Assembly: GCF_044647545.1 (NCBI RefSeq)
Contig: NZ_CP172818.1
Length of the DNA: 64,000 bases
From: Escherichia coli
Lineage (GTDB): Bacteria; Pseudomonadota; Gammaproteobacteria; Enterobacterales; Enterobacteriaceae
Strand: one strand, 5' to 3'
Part shown: piece after piece, positions 14,991 to 53,323 of the stretch
Numbering within the stretch: the first letter of the stretch is position 1
Layout: the number at the start of each line of letters is the position of its first letter
Notes under the pieces: model-generated
Told to the model about the DNA's origin: nothing
What the model saw: the letters and a program-made list of their open reading frames with translations, nothing else
The model's database searches: none
Program-made: the position numbers and the translations under genes

Positions 14991-15022
14991 GTGGTGCCGG
15001 ATGCTCAAGCCGCATCCGGCGA
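14991..15022. repeat. REP-like palindromic element / terminator hairpin between fadM and queC
   Basis: GCCGGATGC ... GCATCCGGC inverted repeat typical of REP sequences. Confidence 0.65.
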
Positions 15023-24485: not shown

Positions 24486-25344
24486 AATTGTGATTACGCA
24501 TTACCCCTTCCTGAACGGTCGAGGCAACCAGCACGCCGTCCTGAGTATAAAACTCACCGCGCACAAAGCCGCGTGCGCTGGACGCCGAGGTGCTTTCCAC
24601 GCTATACAGCAGCCATTCATTCAAATTAAACGGGCGATGGAACCACATGGAATGGTCAATGGTGGCAATCTGAATCCCTGGTTCGAGAAAACCGATGCCG
24701 TGCGGCTGTAGAGCTACCGGCAGGAAGTTAAGATCAGAAGCGTAACCGAGCAGATACTGATGAACGCGCAGATCATCCGGCACGCTACCATTTGCGCGGA
24801 TCCACACCTGACGATGCGGTTCTGCGACGTGCCCTTTCAGTGGGTTATGAAACTCCACCGGACGGACTTCAAGCGGACGATCGCAGATGAATTTATCTTT
24901 CAGCACTGGCGGCAGCAGGTGCGCCAGCGATTGGGCGATTTGCGTTTCCGAAGGCAGGCCATCAGGCGCTGGCGCGGACGGCATTGTTTTTTGATGTTCG
25001 AAACCCGCTTCTGGTGCCTGGAAAGAGGCAGTCATATAAAAAATCGGTTTGCCGTTTTGAATAGCAGCAACCCGGCGGGCGCTGAAGCTGTTACCGTCAC
25101 GCAGCGTTTCGACATCATAAATAATCGGTTTCTTACTATCGCCTGGGCGAAGAAAGTAGCTGTGAAACGAATGTACCAGCCGCTCTTCAGGGACGGTCTC
25201 TTTTGCAGCATACAAGGCCTGACCCACGACCTGGCCGCCAAACACCTGGCGTAAACCTAAATCTTCACTCTGGCCGCGAAAGAGTCCTTCCTCAATTTTT
25301 TCCAGATTTAACAATGTCAGTAAATTTTTTAGCGCCTGACTCAT
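24484..25344 (-). CDS. tesB: Acyl-CoA thioesterase II
   Basis: 286 aa from [20 protein letters not shown]; track ORF is 5'-extended by 28 codons. Confidence 0.93.
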
Positions 25345-25561
25345 ATAACTCTCCAGTAACAAAGCTGCCGCAGCAAGCCAAAGTGAGTTGAGTATAACGC
25401 AAATTTGCCACTGGTCCGATGGGTGCAATGGTCTGAATTACGGGCTAATTACAGGCAGAAATGCGTGATGTGTGCCACACTTGTTGACGTTACTATTTTG
25501 TTAACCACTCTTCCGGCGAGGAAAGTTAGCCCGCTGGTGCATTGATAATAAGGAGAAGTGA

Positions 25562-26134
25562 ATGAAACTCGTGCACATGGCCAGTGGTTTAGCGGTTGCG
25601 ATTGCGTTGGCGGCTTGCGCAGATAAAAGCGCGGATATTCAGACGCCAGCACCGGCTGCAAATACGTCTATTTCAGCAACACAACAACCTGCTATCCAGC
25701 AACCGAATGTCTCCGGTACCGTCTGGATCCGTCAGAAAGTCGCACTGCCGCCTGATGCTGTGCTGACCGTGACACTTTCTGACGCGTCTTTAGCCGATGC
25801 GCCGTCGAAAGTGCTGGCGCAGAAAGCGGTGCGTACCGAAGGTAAACAGTCACCATTCAGCTTTGTTCTGCCATTTAACCCGGCAGATGTTCAGCCGAAT
25901 GCGCGTATTCTGTTGAGTGCGGCGATTACCGTGAATGACAAACTGGTATTTATTACCGATACCGTTCAGCCGGTGATCAACCAGGGCGGAACTAAAGCCG
26001 ACCTGACATTGGTGCCGGTGCAGCAAACCGCCGTGCCGGTTCAGGCCAGCGGTGGCGCAACGACTACCGTACCTTCGACTTCACCAACTCAGGTGAATCC
26101 GTCTTCGGCAGTTCCAGCTCCTACGCAATATTAA
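25562..26134 (+). CDS. ybaY: Lipoprotein YbaY (function unknown)
   Basis: 190 aa, signal peptide with lipobox (LAAC), low-complexity Pro/Ala/Thr-rich tail. Confidence 0.9.
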   Translation: MKLVHMASGLAVAIALAACADKSADIQTPAPAANTSISATQQPAIQQPNVSGTVWIRQKVALPPDAVLTVTLSDASLADAPSKVLAQKAVRTEGKQSPFSFVLPFNPADVQPNARILLSAAITVNDKLVFITDTVQPVINQGGTKADLTLVPVQQTAVPVQASGGATTTVPSTSPTQVNPSSAVPAPTQY

Positions 26135-26141
26135 GCGCAGT

Positions 26142-26168
26142 TAACCCTCTCCGCCCGGAGAGGGTTAG
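26142..26168. terminator. Perfect hairpin between convergent ybaY and atl
   Basis: TAACCCTCTCC-GCCC-GGAGAGGGTTA, 11-bp perfect stem; no adjacent U-tract; overlaps atl stop codon. Confidence 0.55.
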
Positions 26169-26554
26169 TAGTTCCAGCGATAACGCTGCAAGTCGATTTG
26201 CCCGCTTCCCGATACCATCACACCTTCTGCCAGTAATGCCTGTCGTTGACGCTGTAAATCCGGTCCGGTTAGCGAAATTGTGCCGTGGCGATTAACCACC
26301 CGGTGCCAGGGCAAGGTGCTGCCTTCAGGGAGACGCTTTAACACACCGCCCACCTGGCGCGCGGCGCGGGGCGATCCTGCCAGTTTCGCCACATCACCGT
26401 AAGTGGTGACATAGCCTTCGGGAATAGCGGCGACGATTTGCCAGACGCGTTGGGGAAATGAATCTTCTTTTTCCATCTTTTCTTCCTGAGGTAATTTTTC
26501 AGCATAATCTGGAAAAACGCCCGAGTGAAGCCGCATTGCGCAAGAAACCAGCAT
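26165..26554 (-). CDS. atl: Alkyltransferase-like protein (MGMT-like DNA-binding domain lacking the active-site Cys)
   Basis: 129 aa from MLVSCAMRLHSGVFPDYAEK; contains PWHRVV in place of PCHRV. Also known as ybaZ. Confidence 0.9.
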   Translation of the reverse strand: MLVSCAMRLHSGVFPDYAEKLPQEEKMEKEDSFPQRVWQIVAAIPEGYVTTYGDVAKLAGSPRAARQVGGVLKRLPEGSTLPWHRVVNRHGTISLTGPDLQRQRQALLAEGVMVSGSGQIDLQRYRWNY

Positions 26555-26630
26555 CTGGCACGCAATGGGTTGCAATTAGCCGGGGCAGCAGTGATAATGC
26601 GCCTGCGCGTTGGTTCTCAACGCTCTCAAT

Positions 26631-26744
26631 GGGGGCTCTGTTGGTTCTCCCGCAACGCTACTCTGTTTACCAGGTCAGGTCCGGAAGGAAGCAGCCAAGG
26701 CAGATGACGCGTGTGCCGGGATGTAGCTGGCAGGGCCCCCACCC
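26631..26744 (+). ncRNA. ffs: 4.5S RNA (signal recognition particle RNA)
   Basis: 114 nt GGGGGCTCTGTTGGTTCTCCCGCAACGC...GGCAGGGCCCCCACCC matches the E. coli SRP RNA as I recall it; lies in the atl-ybaA intergenic region. Confidence 0.93.
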
Positions 26745-26854
26745 ATTTCTGCCTCCCCCCGTTTCGTCAAAAAATCCCAATATGGCTAAACTTTAACCAC
26801 AACTGACGTCGCAAGAATTGTCTGGCTGCGCAGTACGCTTCGGAGGTATGTCTG

Positions 26855-27208
26855 ATGAAGTATGTTGATGGTTTTGTGGTTGCCGTTCCTGCCGATAAAA
26901 AGGATGCCTATCGGGAAATGGCTGCTAAGGCTGCGCCATTGTTTAAAGAGTTTGGCGCGCTTCGTATTGTCGAATGCTGGGCCAGCGATGTACCGGATGG
27001 TAAAGTGACCGATTTTCGTATGGCGGTGAAAGCGGAAGAGAATGAAGAGGTTGTCTTTAGCTGGATTGAATACCCTTCAAAAGAGGTCCGCGACGCTGCT
27101 AATCAAAAGATGATGTCGGACCCACGGATGAAAGAGTTCGGCGAGTCCATGCCGTTTGATGGCAAGCGAATGATCTATGGCGGATTCGAGTCAATCATCG
27201 ACGAATAG
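26855..27208 (+). CDS. ybaA: DUF1428 family protein
   Basis: 117 aa ORF recognised as YbaA. Confidence 0.9.
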   Translation: MKYVDGFVVAVPADKKDAYREMAAKAAPLFKEFGALRIVECWASDVPDGKVTDFRMAVKAEENEEVVFSWIEYPSKEVRDAANQKMMSDPRMKEFGESMPFDGKRMIYGGFESIIDE

Positions 27209-27214
27209 GTAGCG

Positions 27215-27248
27215 TGACGGGCTGTGCGGCGTGCCGTCAGCCCAAAAA
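27215..27248 (-). terminator. Putative terminator downstream of pdeB (minus strand)
   Basis: Hairpin TGACGG...CCGTCA with A-run on plus strand (U-run on minus strand). Confidence 0.5.
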
Positions 27249-27249
27249 T

Positions 27250-28800
27250 TCACAAATGTTGCTCGGCCCAGCGTAAGAAATCCTCTTTCGGTAATGCCTT
27301 GCTGTAGAGCCAGCCCTGGCCGTAGTGCACGCCATGCTGGCGTAGCCACTCTTCTTGTTTACTGGTTTCGATTCCCTCCGCTACCATTTTCAGTTTCAGT
27401 GTTTTTGCCATTTCGATGATATGTGGCGTGACATTTTTATATTCCAGCGCATCAACGAAAGATTTATCGATCTTCAGAATGTCGACATCCAGATCCTGTA
27501 AATAGCTTAAACTTGAATACCCCGTACCAAAATCATCGAGATAAATTTCATGGCCCGCCTCCCGGTAGCGAGAAATTATCGGGGCGCTGGTTTTCGGATC
27601 GGCAAACTCGCGTTCAGTGAGTTCAAGCGCGATCTGTCTGGGATTAACCTGATAGTGATTGATCATTTCACGCAGCAATTGCGGGATTTTTTCCGAGGTG
27701 AGCACGGTGGATTCAAGATTGATCGAAATATGCTGCTGCGGATGCTGACGCAGCCAGTCGCCCATATCTTCAAAGACACTTTTTATAATCAGTAGCGTCA
27801 ACGGCTCAGAAAGCCCCGTTTGCTGTGCCAGCGGAATAAAACTATCTGGTGACAACCAACTACCGTCTGTCTGCGGCCAGCGCGCCAGTGCCTCAGCACC
27901 GACAATTTTGCCATTGGCTAAGGAGACAATCGGCTGATAGTGCACGCAAATATCACGATTTTCGATAGCATCCTGCAGCCGATGATGCGGTGACTGGATA
28001 CGGCGCAAAATACGCAGCACAAACATCGCTGCCAGCAGGCCAATCACCAACCCGAGCGGTAACCAAATAAAGACTTGCCGATGCCAGCCTTTCTGCAACA
28101 TTTTCGTTGAAGCCCAGGTGATGATCGAAATATTCATCTCCGGTAAGGGCAGGATATCGTAAATGATTCCATTATTTTCGATATGCTCACCGGGTGTTTT
28201 TTGTAGTCTGGTAATAATTCCCTGAGCAATTTCATCGCTGCTGGTTATCACAACGTTATGGGCATTGCCAATAATGGCGGCATCAATTTGCCATGAGCTA
28301 TAGGGAATGACATCAATAAAGGAAGCGGGGTCGATCATGACGACATAATGTGCCGTTCCCATGGCGACCATGTAACGGATAATGCCTAAATCGTTATGCG
28401 ATGTTAACCAGACACGATAACCATCTTTCGAAATTTTACCTGGCTCGGGGAAGGCATCGGGTGGGCTTTCATGCTCCAGAGACGAACACAGGGGAACGTT
28501 GTTATCGATATAAACCACTTCCTGAATATAGCGATAACTGTAAGATACCCGACGCATTTCCATGAGATGGGCTGCGCTACAGGCAGCGCCTTGCCATCTT
28601 TCCAGCTCTTGCAGCGCATCTTTCCCTTGTGTCGCCACCTTATTGGCCCGAATAGCGACGCGGGAGGAATACGTATTCAGCTCTTCAATAAATGATGTTT
28701 CTACCTGCTGATGGGCCAGCCAGATGCTTAAGCCGACAGGCAGCAATACTGAAAGAATCAGTACTCCCGAAATAAGGCCGACCAGATGTCGTGTTCTCAC
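27250..28800 (-). CDS. pdeB: c-di-GMP phosphodiesterase (CSS periplasmic domain + EAL domain)
   Basis: EAL motifs present (EALARW, DDFGTGYSS); start chosen at GTG 28798-28800 (516 aa); an in-frame ATG two codons upstream (28806) is the track start. Also known as ylaB. Confidence 0.88.
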   Translation of the reverse strand: MRTRHLVGLISGVLILSVLLPVGLSIWLAHQQVETSFIEELNTYSSRVAIRANKVATQGKDALQELERWQGAACSAAHLMEMRRVSYSYRYIQEVVYIDNNVPLCSSLEHESPPDAFPEPGKISKDGYRVWLTSHNDLGIIRYMVAMGTAHYVVMIDPASFIDVIPYSSWQIDAAIIGNAHNVVITSSDEIAQGIITRLQKTPGEHIENNGIIYDILPLPEMNISIITWASTKMLQKGWHRQVFIWLPLGLVIGLLAAMFVLRILRRIQSPHHRLQDAIENRDICVHYQPIVSLANGKIVGAEALARWPQTDGSWLSPDSFIPLAQQTGLSEPLTLLIIKSVFEDMGDWLRQHPQQHISINLESTVLTSEKIPQLLREMINHYQVNPRQIALELTEREFADPKTSAPIISRYREAGHEIYLDDFGTGYSSLSYLQDLDVDILKIDKSFVDALEYKNVTPHIIEMAKTLKLKMVAEGIETSKQEEWLRQHGVHYGQGWLYSKALPKEDFLRWAEQHL

Positions 28801-40081: not shown

Positions 40082-40088
40082 GGACAAT

Positions 40089-40120
40089 AAAGGGCGACAT
40101 GATGCGCCCTTTATTTTTTA
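40089..40120. terminator. Bidirectional terminator between mscK (+) and ybaM (-)
   Basis: Hairpin AAGGGCG...CGCCCTT flanked by A-run and T-run; overlaps ybaM stop codon. Confidence 0.75.
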
Positions 40121-47009: not shown

Positions 47010-47049
47010 ATGCCGGATGACCTTTTTGTCATCCGGCATTTTTCTTTTC
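47010..47049 (+). terminator. Rho-independent terminator after htpG
   Basis: 12-bp stem ATGCCGGATGAC / GTCATCCGGCAT followed by TTTTCTTTTC. Confidence 0.85.
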
Positions 47050-53086: not shown

Positions 53087-53323
53087 TCCGTCTCCTTTTC
53101 CTGGTGGTTATTGTCCATTTTTGGCCGGGAAAACCAAAATTACAGGTAATAGTTTATGACAATTTCATTGATGATGTTTATGAATAATTGTTGAATTTTG
53201 CAGAAAAATGGAATTAGCTGCAAAAAAAGCACGGATCGGAAAACAGAAGGCGGTTTAACAGAGGAAAGGCTTATGGCGACTGTAAAACGATGCAGCCAAA
53301 GTTTGCCTTTGGCTGCAATGAAA

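Follow-up and report, generated by a model that had tools for sequence, protein, structure and literature searches.

A hairpin shared by the convergent ybaY and atl genes of Escherichia coli: probable U-poor descendant of an ancient intrinsic terminator

What might a perfect hairpin do when it fills the gap between two convergent genes, reaches into the stop codon of one of them and is followed by no evident U-tract on either strand? The question is raised by the ybaY/atl locus, which was examined within a 64-kb window, this being the whole stretch of DNA analysed; the region is Escherichia coli chromosome with the gene order tesB-ybaY-atl(ybaZ)-ffs-ybaA-pdeB. An earlier note, made from the letters alone, had described a perfect 11-bp hairpin with the loop GCCC at 26142-26168, overlapping the atl stop codon, and had proposed it as a bidirectional terminator or RNA-stability element. 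The hairpin and its loop are present at 26142-26167, the true end lying one base before the 26168 given there, and the atl stop codon (26165-26167) falls inside the 3' arm. The identities of the two convergent genes were likewise confirmed: ybaY encodes a YbaY family lipoprotein, and atl an MGMT family protein, named 'DNA base-flipping protein' for ybaZ in K-12. The gap between them measures 30 nt and is occupied by the hairpin. The features of the site are the following:

25562..26134, + strand: ybaY, YbaY family lipoprotein of 190 aa; stop codon at 26132-26134, 7 nt upstream of the hairpin
26135..26141, + strand: spacer of 7 nt from the ybaY stop to the stem; E. coli strain variants GCGCAGT, GCGACGT and GCGAAGT
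26142..26152: 5' hairpin arm, TAACCCTCTCC on the + strand
26153..26156: loop, GCCC in the ybaY-sense RNA and GGGC in the atl-sense RNA
26157..26167: 3' hairpin arm, GGAGAGGGTTA; the atl stop TAA, reverse-complemented, forms its final three bases (26165-26167)
26168..26182, + strand: U-poor ybaY-sense tail, GTAGTTCCAGCGATA; reverse-complementary to the atl codons for R-W-N-Y and to the last part of the Y codon before them
26165..26476, - strand: atl (ybaZ), MGMT family, DNA base-flipping protein of 103 aa (PGAP); stop at 26165-26167, TTA on the + strand

Since the tail at 26168..26182 complements atl codons, the atl coding sequence dictates its composition. The start of atl is annotated variously, at an ATG at 26476 (103 aa, PGAP) or at 26554 (129 aa, K-12 record), with an open frame extending to a TTG at 26575 (136 aa); homologues have 103 aa in most genera, some being annotated as longer, e.g., 129 aa in Salmonella. 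The K-12 record holds no feature at the hairpin site (475959-475984), and a full-text literature search with the hairpin sequence returned no match; no paper describing the hairpin individually was found.

Read as RNA, TAACCCTCTCC-GCCC-GGAGAGGGTTA forms 11 Watson-Crick pairs without mismatch around a 4-nt loop, and the G-C-closed core of the stem comprises 8 bp (CCCUCUCC/GGAGAGGG); read as double-stranded DNA, the palindrome spans 12+12 bases about a 2-base centre. The folding-energy check that the earlier note had suggested gave -18.7 kcal/mol for each strand (z = -5.4 and -4.5), a stability reached by none of 200 shuffles. The window contains four perfect hairpins whose stems reach 11 bp or more, where dinucleotide shuffles lead one to expect 0.1; of the core pattern CCCTCTCC-N2-8-GGAGAGGG there is a single instance, with an expectation of 0.00. 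A functionless chance palindrome might nonetheless be considered, short intergenic hairpins being very common: the non-coding regions of MG1655 contain 2163 hairpins with 9-15-nt stems and at most one mismatch (Holder et al., 2015, PMC4666352). The hairpin is non-random, yet part of a populous class; it is an individually undescribed example of a well-known kind, one among thousands of E. coli 3'-end hairpins.

The remaining three perfect hairpins of this stem length in the window lie at 40086-40115, 47010-47039 and 53291-53317. The GCCGGATG core typical of REP elements is found in the one at 47010-47039 and in shorter hairpins at 14996 and 56422; the ybaY/atl hairpin has no REP core of this type, and K-12 carries no repeat feature at 475959-475984 that would mark a REP or BIME. 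Folding is also predicted, on both strands, for a small palindrome (CAGCG-ATAA-CGCTG, 26175-26188) inside atl, eight nucleotides past the hairpin. This palindrome is kept widely, but it encodes the nearly invariant Q-R-Y-R-W of Atl, a coding constraint that is enough to explain its conservation.

In several respects the E. coli stem is built like that of an intrinsic terminator, being G+C-rich, within the usual range of about 5-14 bp, closed by a loop within 3-8 nt and situated just past a gene. Set against the Term-seq-supported hairpins of intrinsic terminators in E. coli, its energy falls at the stable quartile (Q1 -18.3, median -15.2 kcal/mol; PMC12207403 Suppl. Table 3), and the A-U pairs at its symmetric base correspond to the usual anatomy of two-way terminators. 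Unlike canonical terminators, it has no U-rich tract of about 7-8 nt directly 3' of the stem on either strand. The bases that follow the 8-bp core are TTAGTAGT in the ybaY sense, with four T's of eight, and TTAACTGC in the atl sense, with three of eight, the first two T's in each tail forming the lower A-U pairs of the 11-bp stem; a consensus terminator scan made no call at the site. By the usual criterion, the earlier statement that no U-tract flanks the hairpin is therefore correct. Tail weights of the core, calculated in the style of d'Aubenton-Carafa and TransTermHP, were 3.27 and 3.08, compared with 4 to 5.7 for clearly canonical orthologues and about 1.5 to 2.5 for U-free ones.

The UUA and scattered U's on the two strands (UUAGUAGUU, UUAACUGCG) could act as a short U-tract, making the 8-bp core a self-sufficient bidirectional intrinsic terminator that releases both RNAs unaided. 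Such a device would account for the terminator-like energy and the A-U pairs at the base, would match the canonical counterparts found in other genera (see below) and is compatible with the tail weights. It is difficult to reconcile with the small number of T's past the core, the silent scan and the lack of a precise 3' end in the tables of Adams et al. (2021). Moreover, the stop codon of the atl mRNA is itself the start of the stem, and a ribosome terminating there would, judging from the size of its footprint, cover the 5' arm. Unaided release in both directions is accordingly regarded as unlikely.

Published transcript ends add little at this position. No 3' end of ybaY, ybaZ or atl appears, for any condition, among the Term-seq ends tabulated by Adams et al. 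(2021), and the bicyclomycin table of the same study has no entry at the hairpin site. These tables do span the region, with an end for ffs at 476561 (+) and one for pdeB at 477032 (-), and the missing ends could be explained by weak expression of ybaY and atl. The supplements of SMRT-Cappable-seq do not mention the two genes. In the ExcludonFinder listing, ybaY-ybaZ is among the 165 convergent MG1655 pairs whose transcript boundaries, placed at 50% of gene coverage, overlap in half or more of the RNA-seq samples (PMC12288877); an overlap of this sort fits a common end at the hairpin and fits read-through equally. The adjoining convergent pair ybaA/pdeB (window ~27209-27249) is likewise listed as an excludon (PMC12288877), and the primary 3' end of pdeB, mapped at K-12 477032 (-), is classed as antisense to ybaA by Adams et al. 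Downstream of the hairpin, the + strand shows a mild excess of C over G in the ybaY sense (GC skew of -0.13 to -0.16), a bias like that described for rut regions (Dar and Sorek, 2018, PMC6061677). In the atl sense, the first 100 nt of read-through RNA are G-rich, which would be unfavourable for Rho.

Within the species, the 501-nt surroundings of the hairpin were present in 5424 of 5426 complete E. coli genomes, and a 38-nt hairpin query was at least 99% identical in 4058 genomes; the variants inspected carried changes in the 7-nt spacer upstream of the stem and none in the stem. In one divergent E. coli strain the stem extends to 13 bp and the loop has 3 nt, and in E. albertii a C-to-U change converts one pair of the stem into G-U.

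For the comparison across genera, Atl was aligned and 80 species loci were fetched, in 77 of which ybaY and atl are convergent neighbours. Nearly all of these have a G+C-rich hairpin between the stop codons of the two genes, and a stable hairpin fills this gap in 75 Enterobacterales species besides E. coli. With the window included, the best hairpin was matched by at most 1% of dinucleotide shuffles in 68 of 70 tested gaps, which are not phylogenetically independent of each other; the two failing gaps have a bulged stem that the perfect-stem finder overlooked. The stem sequence itself changes between genera, being TAACCCTCTCC in Escherichia, Citrobacter and Salmonella, GCTCCTCTCC in Kosakonia, CGCCCTCATC in Superficieibacter, CTGACCCCGG in Siccibacter and AACGCCCCC in Cedecea. 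A MAFFT alignment made from sequence only, anchored by the flanking coding sequence and free of structure fitting, showed the inner helix to be 91% paired, with two-sided changes at six of seven pairs. The covariation score was 0.301, compared with 0.179 in shuffles (none of 500 reached it) and at most 0.152 when the partners were slid, and RNAalifold independently predicted the same helix. Even the atl stop codon covaries with the 5' arm: where the stem reaches it, TAA/TTA is exchanged jointly for TGA/TCA. For the four outer pairs of the E. coli stem, pairing on this alignment was 57%, a poor score that reflects differing stem lengths and registers among genera and no loss of pairing, as the per-locus folds indicate. 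A hairpin that no shuffle equals in stability, that recurs significantly in 68 of 70 orthologous gaps and that changes by compensation would hardly arise without function; judged by this conservation, the chance reading is refuted, and we give it practically no credence.

The two RNAs differ in how well they fold. G-U pairs are frequent and occur mostly in the ybaY-sense RNA, and the ybaY-sense RNA is the more stable in 49 gaps against 23 (of 72), by a mean of 1.3 kcal/mol (Wilcoxon p = 5e-5, phylogeny ignored and the gaps not being independent in this respect). Tolerance of G-U pairs speaks for selection acting on the RNA and against a DNA cruciform or protein site as its object, and the skew in stability suggests that the ybaY mRNA is the main client.

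A T-run, defined as at least five T's in the eight bases after the G-C-closed core, was sought in 76 gaps. It was found in the ybaY direction in 30, in genera such as Klebsiella (with ATGCCCCTTCCCAGGGGCATTTTTTT), Raoultella, Cedecea, Buttiauxella, Kluyvera and Atlantibacter. The atl direction has a T-run in 11 gaps and both directions have one in 10, whereas 45 gaps, that of E. coli included, have none in either. In many genera, therefore, what stands at the position of the E. coli hairpin is a textbook intrinsic terminator for ybaY, and in some it is a two-way one. What distinguishes the U-free forms is a stem pressed up to the atl stop codon. Read on the opposite strand, the E. coli tail TTAGTAGTTCCAGCG spells the atl codons R-W-N-Y-stop, of which R100 and W101 do not vary in the Atl alignment, and the coding sequence thus leaves little room for U's after the stem.

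These comparisons bear directly on the bidirectional terminator or stability element that had been proposed. A terminator or stability role is the part best supported, on comparative grounds, by the kept position, the compensatory changes and the T-runs in 30 of 76 gaps. Bidirectionality is less secure, given the rarity of T-runs in the atl direction (11 of 76) and the greater stability of the ybaY-sense RNA in 49 of 72 gaps.

A palindrome this perfect could also act at the level of DNA, as a protein-binding site, a cruciform or a remnant of the Box C / PIT / TMECO repeats, with its effects on RNA being incidental. Members of that family consist of a pyrimidine block and two purine blocks (CCCTCNCCC ... 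GGGAGAGGG ... GGGTGAGGG) and occupy 23 sites in MG1655 (PMC4666352). The core CCCTCTCC-N4-GGAGAGGG-TTA does equal type-A Box C/TMECO repeats in their opening two blocks and the linker (PMC4666352 Table 1), the likeness extending to CCCTCTCC(C)-loop-(G)GGAGAGGG followed by TTA, and the insertion sequence ISEc13 targets the hairpin as it targets Box C copies (see below). The third block GGGTGAGGG, however, is missing on both sides, here and in all orthologues; in its position the hairpin is flanked by GTAGTTCC, made of atl codons, on one side and by ACTGCGCT on the other. The hairpin is absent from the published list of 23 MG1655 TMECO sites (PMC4666352), and in blastn searches of E. coli the hairpin with its flanks matched its own locus only, at two places per genome, one for each strand of the palindrome; for a true Box C copy the median was 18 places per genome. 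No Box C copy lies within the 64-kb window. An orthologous position across the order indicates that the element was inherited, not inserted. Membership of the family was rejected for these reasons, namely the lack of a third block, the single copy and the orthologous position across genera. The likeness of the core (26145-26167) to type-A Box C is unexplained and may stem from descent, convergence or chance.

Beyond family membership, pairing is kept while the stem sequence changes between genera, the opposite of what a sequence-specific site would show, and the common G-U pairs (G-T in DNA) would be mismatches in a cruciform. Stem turnover with pairing retained largely refutes an element acting on DNA, and we hold it to be very improbable. 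Two further searches concerned repeat and RNA families: in Rfam 15, a search of 25000-27500 (E <= 1) returned ffs (RF00169) as the sole match and none at the hairpin, and the single other near-match to the hairpin arm lay within a coding region and was dismissed as chance.

The hairpin is probably best understood as the U-poor local form, or descendant, of an ancient intrinsic terminator, serving as a 3'-end element common to the convergent ybaY and atl transcripts and chiefly to that of ybaY. This reading builds on what was observed, namely a structure that is conserved, changes by compensation and differs between the strands, and canonical terminators at the corresponding position in other genera; how polymerase, Rho, collisions and exonucleases act on it in E. 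coli is what we infer. An intrinsic terminator hairpin would have occupied the ybaY/atl gap throughout Enterobacterales, and in E. coli the gap would have shrunk to 30 nt, so that the stem abuts the atl coding sequence. With the place of the U-tract taken by the atl codons W-N-Y-stop, the hairpin alone would be expected to pause RNA polymerase or to terminate it weakly. Polymerases that pass it would be halted further on, either by Rho, with the untranslated antisense RNA as its substrate, or by running head-on into polymerases from the opposite gene. Exonucleases working from 3' to 5' would trim the RNA to the base of the hairpin, which would protect the mRNA. The main beneficiary would be the ybaY mRNA, the atl mRNA being served less well; the ribosome expected over the 5' arm at the atl stop and the weaker comparative signal make the atl half of the bidirectional proposal less certain.

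Each of these modes has a precedent, since a U-poor hairpin between convergent genes may be a weak intrinsic terminator, a barrier protecting Rho-terminated RNA (PMC6061677) or a collision pause site (bioRxiv 10.1101/2022.10.23.513370); the reading preferred here joins the first two. In E. coli, the ends of Rho-dependent transcripts lie right behind stable stem-loops poor in U, at which PNPase and RNase II are blocked, and these stem-loops were described as 'essentially identical' to terminator hairpins, minus the U's (Dar and Sorek, 2018, PMC6061677). A switch of terminator class was argued in the same study to need just the gain or loss of U's (PMC6061677). The ybaY/atl hairpin resembles these protective stem-loops (PMC6061677) in its stability, in the absence of U's after it, in its terminator-like energy and in the mild C-over-G downstream in the ybaY sense; it differs in the G-rich sequence downstream in the atl sense. 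With canonical intrinsic terminators it shares a G+C-rich stem of 8-11 bp, a 4-nt loop, a position right after a stop codon, a class-typical energy and A-U pairs at the base of the stem, and it departs from them in the U-tract. The gap offers a clean natural series in which one-way terminators, two-way terminators and U-free hairpins are distributed by genus, and it illustrates how a stem may be preserved while intrinsic and factor-dependent terminators are exchanged through gain or loss of U's.

Collisions could be given a larger part than in the reading preferred here. Ju et al. reportedly described, in 2019, collision-type bidirectional terminators of convergent genes; on this model, the hairpin would not itself release polymerase; it would pause converging polymerases at a fixed place, and head-on and trailing collisions would end both transcripts. 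The model demands appreciable transcription of both genes, and atl is not known to be strongly expressed. The site does have the stated properties of the class, lying between convergent genes with a non-canonical hairpin on both strands (bioRxiv 10.1101/2022.10.23.513370), and the ybaY-ybaZ transcripts overlap in RNA-seq (PMC12288877). In these features, the overlap in RNA-seq coverage included, it resembles the collision-dependent bidirectional terminators of Wang et al. (2022), but its evolutionary signal is skewed to the ybaY-sense RNA, unlike what would be predicted for a symmetric device. A terminator that depends chiefly on collision is thus rated as decidedly unlikely.

The hairpin is also a target of ISEc13, an IS4-like element of 1550 bp. 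In 14 of the 5426 complete E. coli genomes, among them that of EPEC E2348/69, a copy sits within the loop, exactly at the hairpin apex (window 26151-26158), flanked by an 8-bp target duplication, CCGCCCGG, that consists of the loop and the two closing pairs. The occurrence of 14 genomes with a split hairpin implies that the intact hairpin is dispensable for viability. Hairpins split by ISEc13, e.g., in EPEC E2348/69, are natural mutants for the function of the hairpin.

Copies of ISEc13 sampled elsewhere brought the number of distinct insertion sites to 13 in all, a copy on plasmid pMAR2 without target duplication being left out of the count. The duplication, present or reconstructable, is 8-9 bp long and falls at the centre of an inverted repeat that is C-rich on one side and G-rich on the other, approximately CCCY, N8-9, RGGG. 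A clear hairpin or palindrome was recognised at nine or ten of the 13 sites, and a short or imperfect one at the other three or four; two or three sites are Box C copies. Several lie about 24 nt past the end of a gene, and three are located between convergent genes (agp/yccJ, mog/satP and ybaY/atl). No description of a target preference was found for ISEc13, the mentions of the element in the literature searched being element lists. Tentatively, and with considerable doubt, the ybaY/atl hairpin may do more than mark a transcript end passively: it may be assigned to a class of G+C-rich palindromes with a CCCY-N8-RGGG apex, including the Box C/TMECO core, that ISEc13 recognises as landing sites, and, being used by both transcripts, may in addition provide a complementary overlap of 26 nt that couples the stress lipoprotein YbaY and the DNA-repair protein Atl as an 'excludon'.

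Genome CP148541.1 carries a pair of ISEc13 copies that lack target duplications and have reciprocal flanks: a Box C copy is rebuilt when the left flank of one is joined to the right flank of the other, and a CCCCT-N8-AGGGG palindrome when the remaining two are joined. Reciprocal flanks of this kind are the signature of an inversion by recombination between two IS copies.
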